Notes under the pieces: model-generated
Told to the model about the DNA's origin: nothing
What the model saw: only the letters and a program-made list of their open reading frames with translations
Databases searched by the model: none
Part shown: piece after piece, positions 12,492 through 56,643 of the stretch
Layout: each line of letters opens with the position of its first letter
How positions within the stretch are numbered: the first letter of the stretch is position 1
Virus record (IMG/VR): IMGVR_UViG_3300037067_011362
Location: 3,281-67,280 of that record
Length of the DNA: 64,000 bases
Reading direction: 5' to 3' (one strand)
Source of the DNA: a virus
Taxonomy: Duplodnaviria > Caudoviricetes
Made by a program: the position numbers and the translations under genes

Positions 12492-13120
12492 CTCAAATCG
12501 AAAACGCTCTCAAGTACTTCGTTGCCAACTACGAGATTTTGATCGCCATCTGGCAGGGATTGTTCATCGCGCTGTCGACACTCTGTGCGCTTGTCGGATG
12601 GACCAGGGCAAGCAAGGTTTTCGGGACGTTCGCGGCCGTGGATGGTGGCCGACTGGTGCGGTACGCCCGTCGGGCCCTGGTCATCCGCAAGGCCCTGTCC
12701 GGTTTGCTACTGGTGGGCCTCGTCGTGGCCTGCTCCGGAGCTCACCCTCAGATGTCCCAGGTGTGCCCCATTCCATCGGGCTGGGTCCGTGCCCTGCCTA
12801 CCCCTGCCGAGGTCGCCAACGCGGCGGACAAGGGCAAGACGGTGGTGCAGCAGGTCGAGGCCGTCACGGAGGACCCGACGGTTTCTGGCCTGGTCGTGGT
12901 TGCTGGCACCGTCCTGGACGCGCTCGACTCCGTGGCCCCCATCTGCACGGAGCTTGCATCGGCCCCGTGCGACGATACCATTGCCCAGTCCCGCGAGATT
13001 CTGGCCTCGGGCGAGGCTCGGCGAAAGGAGGTCTGCCAGGTGGTTGCTCTGCTTGTCGCGGTCGTGCCAGTTGAGCGTGTGACGGCGGAGCTCGTGGCGG
13101 CGCAGGAGATGTGCCGGTGA
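12488..13120 (+). CDS. Membrane protein of lysis cassette (holin/spanin-like)
   Basis: N-terminal TM helix and an internal hydrophobic stretch ending LVVAC; directly upstream of the endolysin. Confidence 0.5.
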   Translation: MTQIENALKYFVANYEILIAIWQGLFIALSTLCALVGWTRASKVFGTFAAVDGGRLVRYARRALVIRKALSGLLLVGLVVACSGAHPQMSQVCPIPSGWVRALPTPAEVANAADKGKTVVQQVEAVTEDPTVSGLVVVAGTVLDALDSVAPICTELASAPCDDTIAQSREILASGEARRKEVCQVVALLVAVVPVERVTAELVAAQEMCR

Positions 13121-22504: not shown

Positions 22505-23010
22505 TCACGGAAGGACGAGACACCCATCCTGCTCCACCTGGTCTAGTGGGCACCCCATGGAGCAAGCGTACACACGCCGCGCCATGTCCCATGCGGAGTC
22601 GTCCTGCGGGTGCTGCCCGGGTAGCAGGTCGATCGTGATGGGCAGGTCGCGAGATTTCGGGCTGCGTCCGGGTAGCCCCCGGGCTAGCCGATAGCAGTGA
22701 TACACGACCCTCATGACTCGTCCTCGTCCAGATAGTCCCAGCCGGCCGCGGCCACCAGGTCGTGGATGATCTCCTCGTCGTCCCGGTCGTCGTCCGACTC
22801 CGGGCTACGCCAGTAGTCAGGGCCCAGGTGAGCGACCACCAGCTCCACCATGCGGCCACACCTATGCCGAGCGTCCGCGGTCTGGTAGGGCGTACCGTGC
22901 CACGACCCGTCGTCCCCCCGATACTCGATGGGGGATGAGGCCTCGGACAGATCGCACCGGGTGATGAGGGAGTCGAAAGCGAATCGCGTAACGTATGCTT
23001 GGGTTTCCAT
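22505..23010 (-). CDS. Two small early hypothetical genes (22711..23010, 22505..22714)
   Basis: Coupled by overlaps downstream of the duplicated genes. Confidence 0.55.
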
Positions 23011-23627
23011 TACGTGGTCTCCAATAGGGTGAGTAAATCCGCCAGTGACCGCTCGTAGTCGGCGGCTCCGACGGAGTAGGCTTCGTAGTTGACCGCAACC
23101 CCGGCGGCGTAGGCGGCGGTGTCGGAAGTGTAGGCGGCGGCGAAGTAGGCGGCGGAGTAGGCGTCGGCGGCGGAGTAGGCGGCTGCGGCGGCGGAGTAGG
23201 CGGAGTAGGCGGAGTAGGCGTCGGCGTCGGAGGCGTCGGCGGCGTCGGCGGCTGCGTCGTCGTAGGCGTCGGAGTAGGCGTCGGCGGCGGAGTAGGCGGC
23301 GGAGTAGGCGGCGCGCAGCTCGTTAGCCGATGCATCACCCCGCGCAAATCTCTCCGCCGCATCGCACGCTGCGACACTACGTGGGTCAGGCGCGGCTACC
23401 TGTGACAGGGCGCGCCGAGCCGATGCCACGGCAGCTAGACGCAGCACCCGGTCGGGTAGTCCCGTGGCGTAGCAGAGGGCCCAGTAGCGATCCTGCGGGG
23501 GTATGGGGATGGCTGCTACCTGGCGCGGGGAGAGCCCCTCGACGGGGATGAGGTCGGCGAGACGATCGTCAGAGTAGCAGGCGTGAGCGCCTCGAGCTGA
23601 GGCTCTCGTGAGTCGATATGCTGGCAT
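23010..23627 (-). CDS. Imm5-like domain protein with Ala/Tyr-rich repeat, paralog B
   Basis: DPRSVAACDAAERFARGDA motif followed by AAYSAA repeats. Confidence 0.7.
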   Translation of the reverse strand: MPAYRLTRASARGAHACYSDDRLADLIPVEGLSPRQVAAIPIPPQDRYWALCYATGLPDRVLRLAAVASARRALSQVAAPDPRSVAACDAAERFARGDASANELRAAYSAAYSAADAYSDAYDDAAADAADASDADAYSAYSAYSAAAAAYSAADAYSAAYFAAAYTSDTAAYAAGVAVNYEAYSVGAADYERSLADLLTLLETT

Positions 23628-23629
23628 GA

Positions 23630-24289
23630 TTACGGTGTCTCCAGTAGGGTGAGTAAATCCGCCAGTGACCGCTCGTAGTCGGCGTAGGCGGCGTCGTAGG
23701 CTGCGTAGTTGACCGCGACCCCGGCGGAGTAGTGGGCGGCGGAGTAGGCGGCGGAGGTAGCGGAGTAGGCGGAGGCGGAGGCGGCGTCGGAAGTGTAGGC
23801 GGCTGCGTGGTATACGATGGCAGTGGCGTTTGCGGCGTCGGCGGCGTCGTAGGCGTCGTAGGCGTAATCGGCGCGGTGCGCCTCGGCGGCGGCGTCGGCA
23901 ACTGCGTAGGCGGCGGTGGCCGCGGTGGCCGCGGCGGAGGCAACTGCGTAGGCGACGGAGGAGGCCTCTTCCATCTCCGTAGCTGACGCTTCCCCGCGGA
24001 CGTAGCGCTCCGCGACGTCGCAGGCCGCTACGATCCGCGGGTCTGGAGACGACATCTGCCCTAGGGCACGGCGTGCCGATGCCACGGCAGCTAGGCGCAG
24101 TGCCCGGTCGGGTAGTCCCGTGGCGTAGCAGAGGGCCCAGTAGCGATCCTGCGGGGGTATGGGGAGCGCCGCCACATCACGCGGGGAGAGCCCCTCGACG
24201 GGGATGAGGTCGGCGAGACGATCGTCAGAGTAGCAGGCGTGAGCGCCTCGAGCTGAGGCTCTCGTGAGTCGATATGCTGATTCTGGCAT
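23630..24289 (-). CDS. Imm5-like domain protein with Ala/Tyr-rich repeat, paralog A
   Basis: DPRIVAACDVAERYVRGEA motif; near-identical N- and C-termini to paralog B. Confidence 0.7.
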   Translation of the reverse strand: MPESAYRLTRASARGAHACYSDDRLADLIPVEGLSPRDVAALPIPPQDRYWALCYATGLPDRALRLAAVASARRALGQMSSPDPRIVAACDVAERYVRGEASATEMEEASSVAYAVASAAATAATAAYAVADAAAEAHRADYAYDAYDAADAANATAIVYHAAAYTSDAASASAYSATSAAYSAAHYSAGVAVNYAAYDAAYADYERSLADLLTLLETP

Positions 24290-24381
24290 GACGGGGTCTT
24301 TCGTTGAGGGAGCAGCTCGGCTCCAGTGCCGCCGGCTGCCCCTCACCGTAGTCAGGGGCAGGTTGGCGGGACGGGAGACTA

Positions 24382-24642
24382 TCAGCGAGCGGGGCCGGCC
24401 CACTCAGAGTGGCCACCAGCGACGGTGGTGATCTCGATGTCGTGGTGGGCTAGATACGGGCGGTCAGCCGCTACCGACGCGGCGTGCTCACGGGCCTCGG
24501 CGAGCGACGTCGTCGCGAACTGCGGCAGGCACTCGGCCCCGCTCGTGCTCGGGTAGAGTACGATGTGAGTGTGGGCTACCGTCACCGTGTGGGTGCGGCA
24601 GTCGTAGGTGGCAGCGCGACGGATGTTACGAAGGTCAATCAT
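24382..24642 (-). CDS. Small hypothetical, first gene of an early operon
   Basis: GGGAG RBS and a sigma70-like promoter upstream. Confidence 0.65.
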   Translation of the reverse strand: MIDLRNIRRAATYDCRTHTVTVAHTHIVLYPSTSGAECLPQFATTSLAEAREHAASVAADRPYLAHHDIEITTVAGGHSEWAGPAR

Positions 24643-25384: not shown

Positions 25385-26806
25385 TCAACCACCAGCCACC
25401 TTCTTTCTAAACACTTCGGCAGATTTTGCGATTGCGGCTCTCTGGATCTGACCGTCCACGAAGTCCCACGGCATCGGCGTTCCAACAGCTAGACGCTTAA
25501 TGGTTAGCGCTGGCTCTCCAGTGATCATAATAGAGCCTTCCCTCCCGCTTCTGACCAGCGAGAGCGTTCGTTGGTTCTTCTTGTCGCTGCGTCCAGACAC
25601 GTGATCTATCTTTAGACCGTACGTCTTACTCAACCGTCTACGCAGTGACCACGACCATGCCCTGGCGTCTTCGCCTGCGGCCTCCCATTGCAGAGGGGTC
25701 CCCGGTTGAGGGAACAGCGGTTGCCATCGGATCTGAATCTGCCCTACGGTACGCGCCACCGTCAGCAGTGAGCGATCTATCGCTCGCAGCGCGTGGGCCA
25801 GTTCCTCGCACGAATCCGGGGTCTCACCAGGGAGACCCGCGATCATGTGCCACGCGATACGGGTACTCTTCACATCACGCTCGTGGAACCTAGAGAAAAG
25901 GCTCGCGGTTGCCTCGCATAGAAATTCGTTGGTGAGTCGCGGCTTCCCGATCGCAACACGAACACACTGAGTCGCCGCTTCTACTCCGAAGTTGTACTGC
26001 TTGTTGTAGTAGAGAGACCCAGCCGAATCGTACTCCTCGTCCATCGAAGCGGTACACCCCGTGTCTGTCTGGCCTGCCGCGGACATAGCTTTCCTGATCT
26101 CAACGATGTCCGGGTGGGCCTCCGCGTCGCAAGCTTGCAGGTGGACGCTAGGGATGCAGCGGATGGACTTTAGGATTTGCGCGGTGGAGTTGTGGCGCGG
26201 TTTACCCAACCACCCGAGGCCGCAAAACAGACACTTCTTGGGGCACCCGCGGGATATTTCCACGCGACACTGGTGGGCCGCAGCCGTCCCTCGCAAAGAA
26301 ACGGACACGTCGCGTGCGTAGCCGCGCACTAAGCGGTCCGTGCGTTCGTTGTGCTCGGTAGGAACGAACACGCCAGCCACGCGAGCCGCGAAGGACAGGA
26401 AAGCCGCTGTGTTGCCATGTTGCGCCCACAATCGCAGGAGATCAGGCAGCGAATCCTCGGCGTCCCCGAGCACGACCAGATCCACGAAGTCAGCAATCGG
26501 TAGCGGGTTGAATGTGCCTTGCCCTCCTGCCCACACGAAAGGATGAACGCCGAATTGTCTGTCCTTCGACATCGGTGGCACGCGATGACGACGTAGGGCC
26601 TTCGGGATCTGGAACATCGAAGCAAACTCGTGGACGCCCAGGAACAACGCGTCCGGATTCGTTTCGTCGCAAGAGAGGACGAGCCCGTGAGGCCTCCCGA
26701 TCTCAGCCACCAAATGAAGAGGGAAGGTAAGCCCCCCCTCCCCGTGGTGTCCTGTATTGGCTCGGAATGAATCCCAGGTACCGAGCGTGTCGGCGCGAGC
26801 TCTCAT
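25385..26806 (-). CDS. Radical SAM enzyme (COG1032/TIGR03960-like)
   Basis: EISRGCPKKCLFC CxxxCxxC motif, N-terminal WAGGQGTFNPLPIADFVDLVVLGDAE, FGVEAAT, MIAGLPGET, PQPGTPLQW, C-terminal PWD. Confidence 0.9.
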   Translation of the reverse strand: MRARADTLGTWDSFRANTGHHGEGGLTFPLHLVAEIGRPHGLVLSCDETNPDALFLGVHEFASMFQIPKALRRHRVPPMSKDRQFGVHPFVWAGGQGTFNPLPIADFVDLVVLGDAEDSLPDLLRLWAQHGNTAAFLSFAARVAGVFVPTEHNERTDRLVRGYARDVSVSLRGTAAAHQCRVEISRGCPKKCLFCGLGWLGKPRHNSTAQILKSIRCIPSVHLQACDAEAHPDIVEIRKAMSAAGQTDTGCTASMDEEYDSAGSLYYNKQYNFGVEAATQCVRVAIGKPRLTNEFLCEATASLFSRFHERDVKSTRIAWHMIAGLPGETPDSCEELAHALRAIDRSLLTVARTVGQIQIRWQPLFPQPGTPLQWEAAGEDARAWSWSLRRRLSKTYGLKIDHVSGRSDKKNQRTLSLVRSGREGSIMITGEPALTIKRLAVGTPMPWDFVDGQIQRAAIAKSAEVFRKKVAGG

Positions 26807-27486
26807 GCCGGCACCGCCACCAGGGCCTCCCGCTCCTTCAACCAGTACGGAGGAGCAATCGTGGAGTACCCCTGGGGAGAGTTACCCATGTCGAGCCCTG
26901 GTGTTTCCAAAGGAAGAGGACGCAGAGGAAGTCCACATTGCATTATAGGGAATCCTTCCCCCCATGTTTTTTTGGGTGACACCTCCCACTCTCGGACTCT
27001 GCCCTTCCCGCTACCCCGGTACTTCCCGAGGTAGTGGCAGCCGGACAGGATTGCTCGCACGCTCTCGATGTGTCCCAGCGCGTACCACGTCACCAGATCA
27101 TCTTTTGGTATCGCCAACTCCTTCTTCGCGAAATAGCTCTTGTCCTCCGCGACCGAGATATTGACTCTCGTGATCGATGCGTCTCCGAACCGTGCGTACT
27201 CGATCCATGGAGCACGACGCCCCATGATAAACTCGTCGTGTTCCTCGACCTCGAACTCTCCACTTGAGCAGAGGAAAAATCGACCACACGCGCTCTTTGC
27301 GATCGGGATATCAGGAAGTGGCCAATCCCGCGGATCTCCTTCGGGTTGAGCACTCACGCGCTGAGCGAGCAAGATCGCGAGAAGCGCGTCGAGTTGGGGG
27401 GCGCGCCTACCGGCGAACCCCTCACCCATCAGGCGGCACTTGACCACCATCGGTTCCGTCAGCTGTTCACTTGACCACGTAACCAT
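26803..27486 (-). CDS. csf3: Type IV CRISPR Cas5-group protein Csf3
   Basis: LDALLA N-terminus, WYALGHIESVRAIL, G-rich loop YLGKYRGSGKGRVREWEV, LRPLP, PPYW. Confidence 0.88.
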   Translation of the reverse strand: MVTWSSEQLTEPMVVKCRLMGEGFAGRRAPQLDALLAILLAQRVSAQPEGDPRDWPLPDIPIAKSACGRFFLCSSGEFEVEEHDEFIMGRRAPWIEYARFGDASITRVNISVAEDKSYFAKKELAIPKDDLVTWYALGHIESVRAILSGCHYLGKYRGSGKGRVREWEVSPKKTWGEGFPIMQCGLPLRPLPLETPGLDMGNSPQGYSTIAPPYWLKEREALVAVPA

Positions 27487-28463
27487 TGGGCAATGTCGTC
27501 CTTTCGCTCAGCAATGCGAGCCCGGAACAATGTTCCTACCATGCCAGCTAGGTCGTCCCCCAGGTCCTTCCCGATCTGTGGCTGAAGAGTGAAAGGAACC
27601 TGGTGTCCTTGAAGGAATGTCAACTTTCCGAAGCCCTCACGCCCCATTCCACCGACCCGAAAGTTGGAGATGAGACCAGCGAAGACGTAGTTGAAAGCAT
27701 CGAACTCCACGTCGTTGTATGTTCTCGCCTCGACCGCTCCCCAAAGCAGCGCCCCCGAGATGATGTGTTGAAACGACCTGGGCATCATGGTGGATTTGTG
27801 CTGCTTAGCCATCTTCGAATCCCCGGATTGGTGCGCTAGTTCCCGAAGCCGTTGCTTGTCGTATACAGCGATCTGTTCACCTTCCGAGAGCAGCTTGACC
27901 TTCTCTGGGACCAGCTCCGGATCCATGGTGACTCGTTGTGCTCGTGCAGTGAGTGGGCGCCACGAGCAAATGCCTTCGTTGTTCTGTTCCAACCACGCCT
28001 TAACCCACCGCGGCATAACGCCCAGGTTCTCGGTGCATATAAGGTTTAGTGCGTCCACGTTGATCTGTCCCGGCTTTGGACCGTTATCGATGCAACCACC
28101 GAACAGTGGAAGCACAGGGAAGATCGTGCAGAGCTCTCGCCATCGGTCGATATTGAGCACTGACGCGTCACCCTTCCCGGTGGTCGTCCCCCCGTTGAAC
28201 AAGAGTCGGAGAGCTCCTCGGGTCATGCCAGACGACTCCTTGAGAAGCCCAGCGGCGTCAAGGGTTAGAAGCATAGCTGCCTCGCGCAGCTTGTGTCGCA
28301 CCGAATTGCCGGTGACGGTTGGACGATGGACGATCTCCCCTCCTGGTCGACGCACCTTGGCGCGCATGATCATCGCCACATTCCCCACTGTTCCGCGGTG
28401 GTGAGCGATACCCTCTCCATCTGCCCGAACAATGAACTCATACCGTGTTTGCTGGAATCCCAT
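27459..28463 (-). CDS. csf2: Type IV CRISPR Cas7-group backbone protein Csf2
   Basis: TGNSVRHKLRE, LLFNGG, FPVLPLFGG, GQINVD, IISGALLWG, RVGGMGREGFGK. Confidence 0.93.
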   Translation of the reverse strand: MGFQQTRYEFIVRADGEGIAHHRGTVGNVAMIMRAKVRRPGGEIVHRPTVTGNSVRHKLREAAMLLTLDAAGLLKESSGMTRGALRLLFNGGTTTGKGDASVLNIDRWRELCTIFPVLPLFGGCIDNGPKPGQINVDALNLICTENLGVMPRWVKAWLEQNNEGICSWRPLTARAQRVTMDPELVPEKVKLLSEGEQIAVYDKQRLRELAHQSGDSKMAKQHKSTMMPRSFQHIISGALLWGAVEARTYNDVEFDAFNYVFAGLISNFRVGGMGREGFGKLTFLQGHQVPFTLQPQIGKDLGDDLAGMVGTLFRARIAERKDDIAQWLRGQVNS

Positions 28464-28471
28464 GATTGTTC

Positions 28472-28909
28472 CTACTCCTGAAAAAGCCCGTTGGCTCGGG
28501 CGGCGTCTTCGATCTCGTCGGCGGTGAACTTGAGCGATTGCTCGGCTTCTTTCTCCTCCTTGCGAGAATCCACAGTGAGGCGCGATACCCCAATCAGAAA
28601 TGCAGCGTTGCGCTCGATGAACGTGAGCACGTCGTCTTCCTTGCCATTCTCGTCGACCCAGTTCGATAGATCAACCAAAGCCTGGCAAGCGGATTTGTCC
28701 AGCCCCTTGATTTGGAGATCGTTCTGTAGGCTTTGCCCCATCTCTGGGATCGTCTGCTCGCTCGTTGATACCACGAGCATATCCTGGATCCTGTCCCAGT
28801 ACCCTGGAGTGACTCTTCCGCTTCGACTCGCGATGTACCCGCGCCGGTACCCGAGTATCATCTCCACCACTAACGTCTCCACTCGCTTCCGTTGTTCGTT
28901 TGTTAGCAC
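28472..28909 (-). CDS. cas11: Cas11-like small subunit
   Basis: 145 aa all-helical protein (YWDRIQD...LQI) between csf1 and csf2, as in type IV-B. Confidence 0.72.
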   Translation of the reverse strand: MLTNEQRKRVETLVVEMILGYRRGYIASRSGRVTPGYWDRIQDMLVVSTSEQTIPEMGQSLQNDLQIKGLDKSACQALVDLSNWVDENGKEDDVLTFIERNAAFLIGVSRLTVDSRKEEKEAEQSLKFTADEIEDAARANGLFQE

Positions 28910-29822
28910 GTCGTTTCTCTTTCTCGGCAGAGAGTTTCTCCGCCTTCGTTAGTTTCTCACGCTCTTGCCTAGCTTCGACATCCCTCTCATCTCTTTGGGC
29001 AAGCCAAAGCGCTAGCTTGAACCACCCCCCGCCGCGCTTCCCGCGGTGTGCCGTTTCGAAGCACTCAATGTCGTCACGGCACCTGATCCACGTGTTTGAT
29101 CGATAGTCTCCAGCGTCGATCTCTTCTTTGGTCCCACCAGCCGTGAGTAGGGATGCCATGTCGCGAACCAGATCCAGGGATTTCGGAATGGCCACTAGGT
29201 CATCTTCGAAAATGACCACGCCACCGCGACCAGGGCCATTCAATGGAGCCCACGGGGTTACGTGCTTCTGTCCACTGTCGGCAATCGAGGCGAACCACGT
29301 GCCTTGGTGGTTGCGATCCAAGAAAGCCAGTATTAGTGGCTTCTCTCCTTTGCTGGCATTGGCGTATCCGACAACCACTGTTCCGTCCGGAAGTGCAGGG
29401 GAGTTCCATCCCTGCTCCAGGATGTGAGAGTAGTTGCGCCAGTTGCCACCAGCCGAGGCTTGGCCGGATCCTTCGCACTTGGGACACGGGTCCCCGACCT
29501 GGCACGTGCGAGTCTTTCCCTTCTTCTGGACCTCTGTAACGAAACCAGTCCCATCGCACCCCTTGCAGGCCCCAGCGGGGCGGCCAGGGACGGGCCAGAG
29601 ACGGCGAGCTAGCATCACGCAGGCCGCGCACACATGGGACGCGTACGGGGCTCGCACGCGGTTCTGGTCGGTATAGTTGGATGACATCCATTCGCGGACC
29701 GAAAGACCTACGGTAACAGGTCCCGCGCATTGGTAACAGACTCCGGAAGCTTCCAGGCAACCCTCAACGGGAGGGCTACCCAACAGAGTCCAAAGAAGGT
29801 TTGGTGCTGAATCGGTTGTCAT
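28671..29822 (-). CDS. csf1: Type IV large subunit Csf1 (Cas8-like) with inserted DnaJ-type zinc finger
   Basis: CYQC...CAAC zinc site, GNWRNYSH, IADSGQKHVTPWAPLN, KEEIDAGDY, LALWLAQR. ATG 29822 overlaps the upstream stop (ATGA). Confidence 0.85.
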   Translation of the reverse strand: MTTDSAPNLLWTLLGSPPVEGCLEASGVCYQCAGPVTVGLSVREWMSSNYTDQNRVRAPYASHVCAACVMLARRLWPVPGRPAGACKGCDGTGFVTEVQKKGKTRTCQVGDPCPKCEGSGQASAGGNWRNYSHILEQGWNSPALPDGTVVVGYANASKGEKPLILAFLDRNHQGTWFASIADSGQKHVTPWAPLNGPGRGGVVIFEDDLVAIPKSLDLVRDMASLLTAGGTKEEIDAGDYRSNTWIRCRDDIECFETAHRGKRGGGWFKLALWLAQRDERDVEARQEREKLTKAEKLSAEKEKRRANKRTTEASGDVSGGDDTRVPARVHRESKRKSHSRVLGQDPGYARGINERADDPRDGAKPTERSPNQGAGQIRLPGFG

Positions 29823-30916
29823 TTTTCCTCCGTCACACGGATCCTGCCGAAACCGAACGCCACCTTGCCGCCGTATCCTAGGCCTAGCGCGCAGCACTGC
29901 AGGAGGAAACGACCCACCGCGTTGGTCTCGATGATGGCGTGCCCAGCCCAGCCAGCAGTGCGCCCGAACTCGCGATTGCGTCCCGCTAGAGCCACGTATC
30001 TTTCGCTGGTCGAGCCTTCGATAAGCTCCATGCGTACGGTGTTTGGTGCAATGTTGAGGCCCAGGCGGCGCGGCATGAACCCCTCGAGTGTGCCTCGCAG
30101 GTGGCGTGAGTTGGGGGTTATGTGCACCATTGAGCTCCCGTACGCGCGAATGTGCACCGGCGTGATTGCGTCAATCCTCACCTTGTACGTGCCCGGTTTG
30201 TAGCACGGAGCCTTGACCCTGACGAGTGATCCGAACCGGATCGTCACCTCCCGCTCGCCGAGCATGATCTCATGCTCACGACCAGCAAGAGCACGCACAG
30301 CATCATCCTCTGCCAAGTATGCCGCCCACCCACAACCGCTAGGCCACGGGAGCAGAGCAAAGCGCGGCATGTGAGGCATGTGCGCCCCGGTCAGCGACGT
30401 CATCACTCCGTGCAGAGCGGACAGCTGCCAGTGTTGGAAGGTCTGGTGATTCGAAAGCTCGATCGTTGCGAATCCGCCGGGTAGGTAGTCGAGACCCGGG
30501 CATGGTAGAAGCCACGGCTCGATCTCGGGTACGGGTTCGCTCTTTTTGCGCTTCGACGCTTCCTTGGCGGCCAGTCGACGAGCGGCGACGCGCGCCCGGT
30601 GCTCGCCCTTGTGCGTAGCGTACCAGGCCGCAGAGCGCGCCCTGTTCTTCTCGACCTCTGAAGGGTTCGCACGCTCAAGCTGGTAGCGGCGCTTGTACCG
30701 GCAAGGATCCGAGCAGTAGGAGTGTCCCCGGTATTTGGGGACAAAGGGGGTGCCGCAGATTTCGCAAGGCTCCGTGTAGGTTTTGCTTGTTGGGTTCGTG
30801 CGGCAGTAGGCTGTTCGGTGCTCCGGGCAGCAGTACATCTGGCGCGCGTTCTTCGGCTCGAATCCGATGCCGCACTCGGGACACATGCGAAGATCAAGGT
30901 TTAGTGGAGCGTTCAT
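29819..30916 (-). CDS. cas6: Cas6-like RAMP endoribonuclease with N-terminal tandem zinc fingers
   Basis: C-terminal Gly-rich loop GLGYGGKVAFGFGRI, ITPVHIR, SALHG. N-terminal CPEC..CCPEH and CEIC..CSDPC fingers. Confidence 0.8.
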   Translation of the reverse strand: MNAPLNLDLRMCPECGIGFEPKNARQMYCCPEHRTAYCRTNPTSKTYTEPCEICGTPFVPKYRGHSYCSDPCRYKRRYQLERANPSEVEKNRARSAAWYATHKGEHRARVAARRLAAKEASKRKKSEPVPEIEPWLLPCPGLDYLPGGFATIELSNHQTFQHWQLSALHGVMTSLTGAHMPHMPRFALLPWPSGCGWAAYLAEDDAVRALAGREHEIMLGEREVTIRFGSLVRVKAPCYKPGTYKVRIDAITPVHIRAYGSSMVHITPNSRHLRGTLEGFMPRRLGLNIAPNTVRMELIEGSTSERYVALAGRNREFGRTAGWAGHAIIETNAVGRFLLQCCALGLGYGGKVAFGFGRIRVTEEK

Positions 30917-39020: not shown

Positions 39021-39497
39021 TCACGGTTTCTCCTCCTGCTCGCGGTCGAACCTCTCCCAGCACTTGGCCTTGTTTTCAAAGTGTTTGCAGCCGCTGAATG
39101 ATCCGAATCCAATGCACTCGTCCCAGTCCGGTTTCCGATTATAGTCGGCCGACTGGTACCACCACGCCGGGCACGTGGAGCACCTAATCTCGGTTCCGCG
39201 CGAGAATGGTTTTCCTTCGAGCCACTCGTCGTAAGTTAGTCCACCGAAGTGGTCAATGGGGTAAATCGTCCCCCTGCCGATGGTACCGACGACCATTCCC
39301 GGATTGGTTTGCAGGACACGCAGCACGTTTGCCCGTGGCGTGCGGCGCTCGAATGGCTCGAATTCGTGGATGTAGTGATAGCACCCGGTCCCCTTGCAGT
39401 GGTTGCACACGACAGAAAAACCGTCGTGCTCGGCCATTCCGACATAGAGACCGGTCCCACCGCATCGATCACATATCTCGTCGTGTTCAATTCTCAT
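39021..39497 (-). CDS. DnaJ-type zinc-finger protein
   Basis: CDRCGGTG and CNHCKGTG repeats. Confidence 0.7.
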   Translation of the reverse strand: MRIEHDEICDRCGGTGLYVGMAEHDGFSVVCNHCKGTGCYHYIHEFEPFERRTPRANVLRVLQTNPGMVVGTIGRGTIYPIDHFGGLTYDEWLEGKPFSRGTEIRCSTCPAWWYQSADYNRKPDWDECIGFGSFSGCKHFENKAKCWERFDREQEEKP

Positions 39498-39989
39498 GAC
39501 TTCCTCAATTCCCAAGCCGCGAACAAATCCAACATTAGCTGTGCGTGCTGCATGTGCCCGAGCCTCACGCATACGGTGCGCCCTCCATCCTCGATGGCTT
39601 CAAGCAAGACGGTTCCGTCGTCTCGCTCCACCACGCGTACGTGCTCTCTCCGCCCCTCGGCTACTCGCTGGACGCGTGACTCACGTTCGATCTCGAGACG
39701 GGCCTGGTAAGTTTCACGCTCAGCCATTGGCCACCTCCACCTCGACGCCATTGGTCTCGACGATTCCCTCGCGCTCTGCATAGAGCTCATCGAGGACGAT
39801 CCGAGCGATCCCGGGTCCTAATTTGCCAGCGGCTACCTGTCGGCGCGGTGGGCGGGCTGAGTCTGATTTGACGATGAAAATGACCAGTGCTTGCATGGTG
39901 GCCCTCTGAGCTGTTGACGATCTGTGTGCGTCTTGCGCCACTCTCCGGTCGTGATCCGGTGCCGCCTGCGCGGTGAGTGGCTGCATAGG

Positions 39990-53142: not shown

Positions 53143-53763
53143 GTGACCAAGGTATTCAGCGCGACAGCCGCGCACGACAAGAAGATCGAGATCCGAAGAA
53201 CCATCTTGAAACAGGTGGGGGCGGCACGGGTCTTCGAGGGCTTCACCGGACTGGGAGAAATGTGGCAAGGGGCATGGGCGGACGCCGAGAGCCACACGGG
53301 ATGCGACTTGCGCCCACTCACTCTCGATGAGCCAATGCCGCGTATGTGCTGCGACAACCGGCTAGCCCTCAGGTGCTTGGACCTGCAGAAATTCAACGTC
53401 TTTGACTTCGACGCCTTCGGATCCCCTTGGAACCAATGCTTGATTCTTGCCTCACGACGCAAGTGGGCCAAGGGCGAACGCGGCGGGCTAGTCCTCACTG
53501 ACGGCTGCTCGATGAAAATCCGCTTTGGTGAGCTTCCTCACTCAATGGCAAAGCTCATCGGGTGCTACCCAAAGGTCCCAGCTCTGACGTCAGTTGCCGA
53601 GAAGTTCCAGCGGCTCGCTCTGCTTGGTTTCGCAAAGCGAGCCGGGGTCAAGATCGTGAAGGCGTGGCAGTTTGACGGGAACGGGAGCGGACGAGGGGGT
53701 CAGCGAATGACCTACTCCGCTGCGATACTTGAGGGTCTAGGCGGCCCCAACGGCGTCCAGTAG
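53143..53763 (+). CDS. SAM-dependent methyltransferase-fold protein (TcmP-like partner)
   Basis: FEGFTGLG motif I, FDFDAFGSP motif IV, LVLTDG. Confidence 0.65.
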   Translation: MTKVFSATAAHDKKIEIRRTILKQVGAARVFEGFTGLGEMWQGAWADAESHTGCDLRPLTLDEPMPRMCCDNRLALRCLDLQKFNVFDFDAFGSPWNQCLILASRRKWAKGERGGLVLTDGCSMKIRFGELPHSMAKLIGCYPKVPALTSVAEKFQRLALLGFAKRAGVKIVKAWQFDGNGSGRGGQRMTYSAAILEGLGGPNGVQ

Positions 53764-54558
53764 CTTGTGCTGGTATCCGGTTGGCATCGCCCCGGCCCGA
53801 GTCGGCATCTCGTCCCAGGTTCTACCGTCAAGGAGACGCCCGGATGATGTGGGTCGGCTACCGCCGAATTGCTTGAAAAAGAATGGTACTCCCGCAGCGT
53901 TGGACTGATCGCGCACTCCGCGAACCCAGTCCGCATGCTCAGGATGTGGCTCCCACTTCCCCTTCGGGTTCTTGCGGGCAAGGCCACGGGCGTCGGCAAT
54001 GGTCGGGTCCATCATGTGAGATCCGGACTCCCCGCCAACAATCACCCAGTGGATCCCGGTGAGATCAAGGGTAACCGGGCCAAGCAAAGGCTCAACCGAC
54101 AGGTAGCGCACGTGGGCCTTGACGCGTCGCAGTGTTTCAATACGGTGCGCGGTGAGCTGATGCTCAACCGTCACCCCGAGCCACATGCAGTCGGGTACGC
54201 GACGGGTCGAAAAATACCGCTCAGCAACCTCCGGGCGCTTCGTGAGTACCTGGTAGCGGTGCTGCGGGGCAGCCTTCATGGCCTCGATAATACGGTCCCG
54301 GTACTCGTCCGGGATCTTCTCGTGGAACATGTCGGTCATTGAGTTCGTGAAGATTAGGCTAGGACGCTTCACTTTAGATGGCTCTCCCAGTTTGTGTGGC
54401 TTGCACACGATGTCGAAACCGACAGGAAATGCGAGGGTTCCTCGCTTGTTCTCGGCCAGATTTTCGGCGTAGCAGTATTTGCACCCGGCACTAATTTTGG
54501 TGCAGCCAGACGCGGGGTTCCAGGTGAGCTCGGTCCACAGGATTTCGGTTTCGTTCAT
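53737..54558 (-). CDS. DUF5131 (phage Gp37/Gp68) radical-SAM-like protein
   Basis: TWNPASGCTKISAGCKYCYAE, NSMTDMFH, LTKRP, SVEPLLG, WVIVGGESG, FFFKQFGG. GGAGG RBS before ATG 54558. Confidence 0.93.
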   Translation of the reverse strand: MNETEILWTELTWNPASGCTKISAGCKYCYAENLAENKRGTLAFPVGFDIVCKPHKLGEPSKVKRPSLIFTNSMTDMFHEKIPDEYRDRIIEAMKAAPQHRYQVLTKRPEVAERYFSTRRVPDCMWLGVTVEHQLTAHRIETLRRVKAHVRYLSVEPLLGPVTLDLTGIHWVIVGGESGSHMMDPTIADARGLARKNPKGKWEPHPEHADWVRGVRDQSNAAGVPFFFKQFGGSRPTSSGRLLDGRTWDEMPTRAGAMPTGYQHKLLDAVGAA

Positions 54559-54698
54559 TGGTTCAACCTCCAAGCTAAGTGTGGTCTCAACTACCCGACT
54601 TTACTAGGTTTTTTAGTTCCAGGTGTAAGCTGGCCATATCAGAGCCAATTCATGGATCAGCAGCAGGAAACCGGGCCTTGGCCCGTTGATAAATCGAC

Positions 54699-55181
54699 AT
54701 GGCAGGCGACACTAGGGGGCGAAAACCCAAGCTAACCAAGGAGACCCGAGCGGGACTTCTTGCGTTGTTGGAGGCTGGCGTACCTCGCGAGGTGGCTTGC
54801 TCTGGGGTTGGGATCGATTCTCGCACTCTTCGGATCTGGATGACTCGCGCGCGCGCCGGTGAGGCCCGCTTCGTCGAGTTCTCCGATCTGGTCGAGCAAG
54901 CTCAAGCGAAGGCCCAATCATCGATGCTGGCCACCATAAACAGGGCCGGAAAGCGCGACTGGAAGGCGATGGCTTGGCTACTCGAGAGATGCTTCTCCGA
55001 GCGATACGGCTACAAGTCGCAGGTCAAGATTTCGGTAGAAGCAGAGCTGGAGAAGATGCTTGACGTGGCCCAGAATGTTCTCGGAGCAGAAGCGGCCTCC
55101 AAACTCTTCGATGCATTTGCTGGCGCAGCTTGCGGCGAAGCGATCGAAGAAGCTTCGGGAGCAAGCCCGAGACTCAACTAG
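54699..55181 (+). CDS. terS: Terminase small subunit
   Basis: GRKPKLT..HTH..DWKAMAWLLER; directly upstream of terL. Confidence 0.85.
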   Translation: MAGDTRGRKPKLTKETRAGLLALLEAGVPREVACSGVGIDSRTLRIWMTRARAGEARFVEFSDLVEQAQAKAQSSMLATINRAGKRDWKAMAWLLERCFSERYGYKSQVKISVEAELEKMLDVAQNVLGAEAASKLFDAFAGAACGEAIEEASGASPRLN

Positions 55182-56643
55182 GGTAACCGAGAGCCCTCCG
55201 GCTCCCACCTTCCAGGCCTTCTGTGTCCGCCTGAATGTCAATCTCAGCGACGCCCAGCGGGTGCTCACGACGGTTGCGTTCGACGGAATTGACCCGGTAG
55301 ATCTGCCGGACCACGACCGCTCAATCGCTTCGGAGCTCTTCGGAGGCGTCGAGCGGTTTGATTCGGTGAAGCGGGCGGTCCTGGTGGCCGTCTGTGGAGC
55401 CCGAGGAGGTAAGACCTATATCCTCTCGGCGCTCTACTCGCTTTGGCGGGCCTTGTACGCAGACCTGTCTACGATGGCCCCTGGAGAGGTCGCGGTTGCC
55501 CTCGTGGTGGCCCCAGACCTTGGGCTCGCCCACCAGACCCTATCCTACGCCAAAGGTGCTGTAGCGGCAGACCAAGAACTCTCTGGGTTGGTCACCGCCG
55601 ACAACGCCGACTCACTGGCGCTTCGAAGGCCAGACGGTCACACGGTCTCGATTCTCTGTCGAGCCGCTGGACGTGGTGGCGCTGGGCTTCGCGGTAAGTC
55701 GCTCGTTTCGGCAGTGCTGGACGAGTGCGCGTTCTTCCGAGATCGGTCCTTTGTTGTAAACGACAAGGACGTTTTCGATGCAGTTTCTCCCCGGGTACTC
55801 CCCGGTGGTCTCGTAGTCATCGCCTCAACCCCATGGGCTGAGGCGGGGCTACTGTTCGACGAGTTTACGCTCAACTTCGGGCATCCGGTCACCGCAATGG
55901 CGGTTACGGCGCCCACCTTGCTCATGCTGCCAACGCAGCGGAACAAGGACGCGGTGGCTCGTGAGGAAGCCCGCGACCCAGACAATGCGCTCCGTGAGTT
56001 CGGTGCGCAGTTCATGGCGGCTGGGGCCGGCACATTCTTCGACCGTGATTGCTGCGTGGTGGATGAGGAGTACGAGCCCAGAACTAATGCCCCGTCGGAT
56101 GCGACGGTGGGGGTTGGGGGCGATCTAGCCCTGGTTCGAGATGCGGCCGCGGTGGTCGTGATCCACGAGCAAGACGGAGAATACTACGTCGCTGAGATTG
56201 TGGAGAAAAACCCGAAAAAGGGCCAGCCACTCAAGCTATCGGAGGTGGTCAAAGAATTCGCCGAGGTGGCCATTCGTCACCGGTCATGCGAGATCGAGGT
56301 CGACCACCACGAATACGAAGCCGCCAAGGAACATCTACCGAGTGGAGTTGACCTAGTGGCGTGCGACGGTGGGCAACAAGCCAAGGCCGACACCTACACC
56401 AAGTTTCGGGACATCCTCCACAACCGAAAGCTTCATATTCCTCCGCAGTTCCAGCGACTGACGAACCAGTTGCGGGACGTAACGAAGCGCCCAGTTTCTG
56501 GAGGAGGCCTTCGGATCTTCTCCCCCCACCGCAACAACACCCACGGGGATCTCGTGAGTGCAGCGGTGCTGGCGCTAGACATGATTTCTGAAGGGGCGTC
56601 GGAGGGCTACACCTCCGCAACAGCCCCGAGCCGCGGCCGATAG
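55111..56643 (+). CDS. terL: Terminase large subunit
   Basis: CGARGGKT Walker A, VLDECAF Walker B, ASTPW, GGDLA nuclease Asp, HGDLVSA. Confidence 0.93.
   Translation: MHLLAQLAAKRSKKLREQARDSTRVTESPPAPTFQAFCVRLNVNLSDAQRVLTTVAFDGIDPVDLPDHDRSIASELFGGVERFDSVKRAVLVAVCGARGGKTYILSALYSLWRALYADLSTMAPGEVAVALVVAPDLGLAHQTLSYAKGAVAADQELSGLVTADNADSLALRRPDGHTVSILCRAAGRGGAGLRGKSLVSAVLDECAFFRDRSFVVNDKDVFDAVSPRVLPGGLVVIASTPWAEAGLLFDEFTLNFGHPVTAMAVTAPTLLMLPTQRNKDAVAREEARDPDNALREFGAQFMAAGAGTFFDRDCCVVDEEYEPRTNAPSDATVGVGGDLALVRDAAAVVVIHEQDGEYYVAEIVEKNPKKGQPLKLSEVVKEFAEVAIRHRSCEIEVDHHEYEAAKEHLPSGVDLVACDGGQQAKADTYTKFRDILHNRKLHIPPQFQRLTNQLRDVTKRPVSGGGLRIFSPHRNNTHGDLVSAAVLALDMISEGASEGYTSATAPSRGR

Follow-up and report, generated by a model that had tools for sequence, protein, structure and literature searches.

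A probable type IV-B CRISPR effector operon of a tailed phage, with a radical SAM enzyme in the position of the CysH-like partner

Introduction

Can an array-less type IV-B CRISPR effector be served by a catalytic partner other than the CysH-like enzyme that almost always accompanies it? The question is raised by a 64,000-nucleotide (nt) stretch of tailed-phage DNA (hereafter the window; bases 3281-67280 of the 67,280-nt IMG/VR virus record IMGVR_UViG_3300037067_011362, a record estimated to be 81% complete), in which six minus-strand open reading frames (ORFs) occupying 25385-30916 encode a Zn-ribbon Cas6, Csf1, Cas11, Csf2, Csf3 and a radical S-adenosylmethionine (SAM) enzyme, hereafter rSAM. 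Among the widespread CRISPR-Cas subtypes, IV-B alone is without known function, and reviews seek the key to it in its near-invariant CysH-like partner. The subtype is defined by csf1, cas11, csf2 and csf3 together with that cysH-like gene, and is array-less (PMC7038947, PMC8175902, PMC11656645). Its Csf complex binds heterogeneous RNA, and CysH has been proposed as the modifying partner (PMC7937560, PMC8175902). IV-B loci with CysH are already known from phages and archaeal viruses (PMC10848311), and only 12 instances of Cas6 in IV-B have been reported (PMC7038947).

We favor, with moderate confidence, the reading that the six genes form a phage-borne, array-less IV-B effector operon in which a dedicated rSAM takes the position of the CysH-like PP-loop enzyme. 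We set out below the subtype affinity of the operon, the distribution of the two partner enzymes among related loci, and the predicted properties of rSAM, Cas6 and Csf1, and weigh four other accounts of the locus where the relevant evidence is given.

Results

The Cas core genes were assigned by using CRISPRCasTyper-derived PADLOC models, with which NCBIfam equivalogs were concordant at sub-threshold level. All coordinates in this paragraph are on the minus strand. The first gene, cas6 (29819..30916, 365 amino acids (aa)), encodes a protein with a pair of Zn ribbons at its N-terminus, a long basic helix, and a Cas6 domain at its C-terminus. It is followed by csf1 (28671..29822, 383 aa from ATG 29822; Cas8-like large subunit; PADLOC Csf1_0_IV, E 7e-19; TIGR03114, E 2.6e-5), cas11 (28472..28909, 145 aa, GTG start; small subunit; PADLOC Cas11_1_IV, E 1.5e-4), csf2 (27459..28463, 334 aa; Cas7 backbone subunit; PADLOC Csf2_0_IV, E 2e-32) and csf3 (26803..27450, about 215 aa from ATG 27450; Cas5; PADLOC Csf3_0_IV, E 2e-24). 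The last gene (25385..26806, 473 aa) encodes rSAM, with a Rossmann-like N-domain (PF19864, E 4e-17) and an rSAM barrel (PF04055, E 3e-9). An earlier note, made from the letters of this DNA alone, had named the same six genes, and PADLOC, Pfam and structure matches agree with it on every one; Csf2 and Csf3, on whose match to type IV profiles it had made its type IV call depend, both match them. Homologues of Csf1 number 253 at E ≤ 1e-5 and those of Csf2 number 38 in the database, and type IV Cas11 models match 16 of 20 members of the Cas11 family (best E 4e-10).

The tight coupling of the genes, also described in that note, is evident from two ATGA overlaps, 8-nt gaps and a 239-nt overlap of csf1 with cas11. 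The csf3/rSAM junction is one of the ATGA overlaps. The cas6/csf1 junction is the other when csf1 starts at ATG 29822, which has a GGAGGA Shine-Dalgarno sequence upstream and to which we assigned the start in preference to an upstream GTG. Between cas11 and csf2 lies a gap of 8 nt. The longest ORF for csf3 begins at 27486; the start is most likely ATG 27450, 8 nt past the csf2 stop, as judged from the homologues, whose alignments set in only at residues 8-12 of this longer frame.

To place the operon among subtypes, profiles were compared with PDB entries. A Csf2 profile of 28 homologues had the IV-B Csf2 of 7JHY as its best match (E 2.6e-15), with weaker matches to a protein labeled 'Cas7c' (11fs, E 3e-9), to IV-A Csf2 (8rc2, E 4e-4) and to Csm3; the top PDB match of the Cas11 profile was likewise the Cas11 of 7JHY (E 0.033). 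By its gene content, the operon is IV-B-like: it has csf1, cas11, csf2 and csf3, with a Csf2 nearest to that of IV-B, and is without an array, Cas1 or DinG. Two attributes set it apart from IV-B, in that the cysH-like gene is absent, with rSAM abutting csf3 instead, and in that Cas6 is present. The IV-B core affinity proposed in the earlier note is thus borne out by gene content and by the Csf2 profile, with CysH lacking.

The Csf complex of Mycobacterium sp. JS623 (7JHY, PMC7937560) comes from a locus with the four core genes in identical order, and both systems are borne on mobile elements, have no array and, among the operon genes, include no adaptation module or nuclease/helicase. They differ in that the element here is a tailed phage and not a plasmid, rSAM stands in place of the CysH-like gene and a Zn-ribbon Cas6 comes first in the operon; the relation to the Csf2 of 7JHY is seen only at profile level. 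Type IV-A (csf1-3, Cas6/Csf5, DinG and an array) is likewise a Cas6-containing type IV effector that has recruited an accessory enzyme instead of a nuclease. IV-A, however, has an array and DinG and is without Cas11, whereas the window has Cas11 and neither an array nor a DinG-type domain.

To determine which partner enzymes accompany related Csf proteins, we carried out alignment-based scans and annotated the retrieved loci by ORF clustering, Pfam and home-built hidden Markov models. The Csf2 alignment retrieved 35 IMG/VR loci at Csf2 identities of 31-52%; a scan of viral contigs with the single Csf2 protein returned nothing. L018 apart, which has a truncated csf2 and in which csf3 was not found, all of these loci contain csf1-cas11-csf2-csf3. 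A PAPS-reductase-like gene (PF01507) lies beside the csf genes in 33 of the 35 and rSAM in only one (L003). These 33 loci, together with that of Fuxivirus (PMC10848311), make up the CysH-type virus loci with which the window can be compared. They share with it a viral carrier and homologous csf genes, and many resemble it further in the overlap of csf1 with cas11, in the tail motif of Csf1 and in having the same Zn-ribbon Cas6; they differ in that their accessory is a PAPS-reductase-like PP-loop enzyme, and Fuxivirus also has a mini-array.

The rSAM alignment retrieved 34 loci, of which 3 were viral, 30 metagenomic and 1 from a metagenome-assembled genome of the Myxococcales. Besides the window, 28 rSAM-seeded loci were non-redundant, and 24 informative loci including the window were left once duplicates and loci cut close to the gene had been dropped. 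In 23 of the 24, csf3 (usually with csf2 and csf1 too) directly adjoins rSAM, even where Csf2 identity is 25-30%, and in none of the rSAM-seeded loci is a gene of the CysH type found next to csf3. The full six-gene layout of the window recurs in two of them (L041 and L042). The earlier note had suggested a search for further loci with the same gene set; the locus of the window does not stand alone, since rSAM-csf linkage is found in about two dozen metagenomic and viral loci after redundancy is removed.

On a maximum-likelihood tree of Csf2, CysH and rSAM labels are interleaved, with 7 changes of which at least 3 are forced by well-supported branches; a CysH locus (L012) and an rSAM locus (L047) are sister taxa. 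Because of the csf adjacency in rSAM loci and the mixing of labels on the Csf2 tree, we conclude that the rSAM family looks like a dedicated accessory of this IV-B lineage, interchangeable with CysH. The two enzymes are nearly mutually exclusive and have been repeatedly swapped on related Csf backbones. The version of IV-B with rSAM for CysH is real, conserved and apparently undescribed: a radical SAM variant is not mentioned in the 2025 classification update (PMC12669027), and full-text literature searches and a term check in a published survey of CRISPR-linked genes found no paper that links type IV to radical SAM enzymes, although subscription journals, which lay mostly outside that search, may hold a prior description.

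The same synteny bears on the possibility that rSAM, as a phage gene for nucleotide or DNA modification without relation to the csf operon, neighbors it by chance. In favor of this are L065, where rSAM has an HNH gene and a gene for a C5 DNA methylase beside it and no csf genes are seen, and L003, where a DNA-methylase-like ORF stands between csf3 and rSAM. Chance neighborhood is, however, poorly compatible with the presence of adjacent csf genes in 23 of the 24 informative non-redundant loci, deeply diverged as these are, with the ATGA overlap at the csf3/rSAM junction, and with an rSAM that sits in the usual place of CysH and is mutually exclusive with it; we regard it as very improbable. 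As to the content of the csf3-rSAM slot, the ORF of L003 (9637-10257, 206 aa) has a C-terminal match to N6/N4 DNA methylases (PF01555, E 8e-7), a variable gene of about 200 aa occupies the slot in several other rSAM loci, and a Zn-ribbon protein is found in L049, L053 and L054.

The rSAM protein itself has the CX3CX2C motif for [4Fe-4S]/SAM binding (C188/C192/C195; 26222..26245, minus strand), which is invariant in 27 sequences and accounts for all of the cysteines conserved among them. This motif, the PF04055 match and fold matches over a partial TIM barrel place the protein in the radical SAM superfamily. By sequence it falls with PF19864 and with TIGR03960/YgiQ-like proteins, it has roughly 70 database homologues, and the ESM Atlas clusters closest to it are 73-100% viral; NCBIfam gave sub-threshold matches to B12-rSAM families. 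An AlphaFold2 (AF2) model with a predicted local distance difference test score (pLDDT) of 91.8 aligns end to end with MgmA (9ccb), the closest structure, at Z 22.5 and a root-mean-square deviation of 3.6 over 356 residues. MgmA is a B12-dependent glutamine C-methylase (PDB 9ccb). Further fold matches were to CysS (Z 18.9) and to MiaB with RNA (Z 18.2), with RimO, OxsB, TsrM and TokK lower.

On the strength of this model, rSAM is predicted to be of the B12-binding-like/MiaB-like structural class. With the class B rSAM methylases (MgmA, CysS, TsrM and TokK) and with MiaB/RimO it shares a Rossmann-like N-domain, an rSAM barrel and CX3CX2C; unlike them, it belongs to a csf-dedicated, largely viral family, and its identity to them is only 13-17%. 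Membership among the MiaB-type methylthiotransferases was rejected in spite of fold Z scores of 17-18, because the three conserved N-domain cysteines of the auxiliary [4Fe-4S] cluster are lacking. A complex prediction of Csf1 (residues 1-290), Csf3 and rSAM gave a score of 0.00, which speaks neither for nor against binding.

The assignment of Cas6 draws on structure comparison. With the AF2 model (pLDDT 91) as query, Foldseek ranks 1-39 were all Cas6, with probability 1.00 and TMt of 0.49-0.62 among the best-ranked; the top structures were 3ufc, 4c9d and 6fjw (TMt 0.62), and the IV-A Cas6 structures 6njy and 8rc3_M were also among the matches. The model has the tandem RRM/ferredoxin-like fold, and the C-terminal G-rich loop (GhGxxxxxGhG) reads GLGYGGKVAFGFGR, in which the glycines G347, G349, G355 and G357 do not vary across 62 sequences. 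Two histidines are conserved as well: H169, which lies in the first helix (helix 1) of the N-terminal-most RRM, and H179. Sequence searches with the protein gave Zn-ribbon-type matches only, and its homologues gave marginal Cas6 Pfam matches.

The Zn-ribbon region comprises residues 12-72 (30701..30883, minus strand), where the translation shows CxxC...CxxxC ribbons. The second ribbon (C51, C54, C68 and C72) is family-wide, with C51/C54 invariant and C68/C72 nearly so in the 62 sequences; this phage has the first ribbon in addition, as a further copy. A PHROG label of 'HNH'/NinG for the N-terminus was rejected, since the matches span the ribbon region alone and the model consists there of two small β-hairpin Zn ribbons and a long helix; no nuclease motif was seen in this N-terminal ribbon region. 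The Zn-ribbon Cas6 family comprises 337 representative clusters, and 24 of the 35 Csf2-seeded viral loci have it on one side or the other of the csf genes, which makes it common in CysH-carrying phage IV-B loci, and many rSAM-linked loci are without a detectable Cas6. The earlier note had presented rSAM and Zn-ribbon Cas6 together as a new accessory set. Of the two, rSAM is linked to the csf genes in a conserved manner, in the place of CysH, and no description of this was found in the searchable literature; the Zn-ribbon Cas6 is not tied to rSAM.

With a Cas6 present and no array, the operon could also be read as a guide-RNA sponge with anti-CRISPR effect, in which Cas6 captures host precursor CRISPR RNA (pre-crRNA) or mature crRNA, the Csf filament sequesters it, and rSAM (CysH in sister loci) disables the RNA by chemical means, so that host immunity is blunted without target recognition. 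A phage-borne operon in an early-type block fits such a sponge, as does an IV-B complex that binds heterogeneous RNA; the idea has been published (PMC8175902, PMC7038947), and MiaB, a structural neighbor of rSAM, acts on RNA. We nevertheless consider it unlikely, for detectable Cas6 is missing from many rSAM-linked loci, the clamp-type tail of Csf1 described below points to DNA and the replisome and not to free RNA, and the authors of PMC7038947 deemed a complex anti-CRISPR of this kind unlikely.

The C-terminal tail of Csf1 is disordered over about 100 residues and carries the C-terminal peptide QIRLPGF (28677..28697, minus strand), a variant of a clamp-binding-type tail. The bacterial beta-clamp-binding motif is QL[SD]LF. 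A QLxLF-type peptide is present within the final 40 residues of 55 out of 120 Csf1 homologues, against a shuffled expectation of 0.27; its commonest position is 3 residues from the C-terminus. A further 33 have only a QxxLxxF-type variant, mostly of the form Qx[RK]LPGF seen in the window, the shuffle control covering the QLxLF type only. Overall, a Q-anchored tail peptide is present in 88 of the 120, and Q376 of Csf1 is invariant in the alignment. We found no type IV paper that describes a clamp-type Csf1 tail.

The stretch that encodes this tail and its terminal motif appears to overprint the first approximately 80 codons of cas11: the dual-coding csf1/cas11 overlap (28671..28909, minus strand, 239 nt) specifies the Csf1 tail and the Cas11 N-terminus in two frames. 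The overlap measures 224-308 nt in 37 of 49 loci and has the same relative frame in 47 of the 49. Csf1 also contains a DnaJ-type CxxCxGxG zinc-finger insertion (29457..29573, minus strand; PF00684, E 1.3e-4), found within the Csf1 alignment only in the window, L041 and L003, all three of them rSAM-linked. A free-standing 183-aa protein with two DnaJ-type fingers is encoded 10 kb upstream, at 39021-39572 (minus strand), in the same strand block.

A more far-reaching account gives the Csf1 tail a central part. IV-B would then be no immune effector but a replisome-tethered, RNA-scaffolded particle, held on the clamp by the Csf1 tail and applying PP-loop adenylating or rSAM chemistry to nascent nucleic acid, the outcome being RNA-templated or RNA-guided covalent modification in the service of phage and plasmid counter-defense. 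Taken as a whole, we hold this account to be doubtful.

Absent modules were sought across the whole 67,280-nt record, which contains no CRISPR array or mini-array, no Cas1 domain, no PAPS_reduct (PF01507)/CysH and no DinG-type Helicase_C_2 domain. DinG is scored as absent because the Helicase_C_2 domain is; the sole helicase of the record is of the SNF2 type and lies 15 kb off on the other strand. The earlier note had listed array, cas1, DinG and CysH as missing, and for these its list holds record-wide. It had also listed cas2, RecD and Cas10-HD, none of which was found among the six assigned operon genes or in Pfam and PHROGs scans of the larger neighboring ORFs; with no dedicated profiles run, these absences apply to the neighboring ORFs and not to the whole record. 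Rfam returned no RNA families in the window, and the non-coding flanks of the operon resemble neither related loci nor any other part of the window. Among the CysH-type relatives, L017 has a genuine CRISPR array (12573-12960; six repeats of about 36 nt at a periodicity of about 73 nt) approximately 3 kb downstream of its csf genes.

The operon might alternatively serve nuclease-free RNA-guided silencing as in IV-A, with crRNAs borrowed either from an array of the host or from one located elsewhere on the phage, competitor transcription or replication being blocked and rSAM being auxiliary. The true 6-repeat array of L017, 3 kb from csf genes, the IV-B mini-array of Fuxivirus (PMC10848311) and the Cas6 of the window operon would all be in keeping with this. 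We think it distinctly improbable: an array is lacking from the 67-kb record, which is 81% complete, and from almost all relatives, and the near-obligate enzyme partner, whether CysH or rSAM, argues that catalysis is central.

The earlier note had placed the operon in a phage, and its surroundings are those of a tailed phage, with terminase (55060-56643), portal, prohead protease and tape-measure-like genes on the plus strand. The operon lies inside a minus-strand block of approximately 21.4-41.6 kb that holds an AAA_24/Sak4-like gene and mainly small genes without assignment. That the six genes are part of an early operon is plausible, given the AAA_24/Sak4-like gene that shares this block with them. 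Searches for an integrase, a sliding clamp and tRNAs found none, and a blastn comparison of the operon with 50,697 GenBank phages gave zero matches. An apparent gap of 390 nt upstream of cas6 was rejected as such, being a protein-coding ORF. Decay or pseudogenization of the operon was also rejected, as every ORF is intact and family-invariant residues are retained.

Two further features of the window were recorded. At 23010-24403 (minus strand), two neighboring ORFs (205 and 257 aa) consist mostly of degenerate 9-15-nt GGC/GTA-rich tandem repeats, and the low-complexity repeat proteins they encode have no family matches. Directly ahead of the terminase and on the opposite strand, a DUF5131 (phage Gp37/Gp68-type) gene (E 1e-80) is located at 53737-54573 (minus strand).

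Discussion

For the reading that we favor, a IV-B effector operon with rSAM in the CysH position, the proposed mechanism is given here in order of falling support. First, rSAM would be the catalytic output that works with the Csf ribonucleoprotein, in the role that CysH has elsewhere, and would do the job of the adenylating CysH-like enzymes of sister loci. Second, its reaction would be a SAM-derived radical (or methyl-type) modification of nucleic acid held by or next to the Csf complex. Third, Cas6 would supply or cap an RNA, for which host pre-crRNA or another transcript are candidate sources; Csf2 and Cas11 would polymerize on the RNA bound or trimmed by Cas6, and Csf1 and Csf3 would cap the filament. 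Fourth, the flexible Csf1 tail may tether the particle to the host sliding clamp and thereby to replicating DNA. Last in support comes the purpose, which is probably counter-defense or mobile-element competition early in infection.

Five findings weigh against this reading or steps of it. The closest solved structure to rSAM, MgmA, acts on protein and not on nucleic acid. The peptide QIRLPGF in the Csf1 tail of the window deviates from the canonical clamp motif. The vicinity of the operon yielded neither an RNA partner nor a repeat nor any conserved non-coding element. In the divergent locus L069 (1412-7190), where rSAM lies downstream of csf3, a gene of the PAPS-reductase family that is DndC/SspD/BrxP-like stands upstream of csf1; this is the sole co-occurrence of both accessory classes seen. 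Finally, L065 (4478-11175) has rSAM without detectable csf genes, the only informative locus of which this is true. Beside rSAM in L065 are genes for a C5 DNA methyltransferase and for an HNH endonuclease and one that resembles a type IV restriction endonuclease, neighbors that hint at a DNA-directed role for rSAM.

For IV-B as a whole, the partner enzyme is implied to be a swappable catalytic output, because rSAM repeatedly replaces CysH on closely related Csf backbones; and the range of hypotheses is narrowed, because the modification of nucleic-acid bases is typical work for both classes of enzyme. An rSAM partner offers an easy assay read-out in the cleavage of SAM to 5'-deoxyadenosine and in a mass shift on the substrate. 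Further handles are Cas6, which is expected to mark the RNA partner, the clamp-type tail of Csf1, which points to the replisome, and the conserved dual-coding overlap of csf1 and cas11. The rSAM variant makes the question of IV-B function more tractable, and is for that reason of interest to CRISPR specialists.

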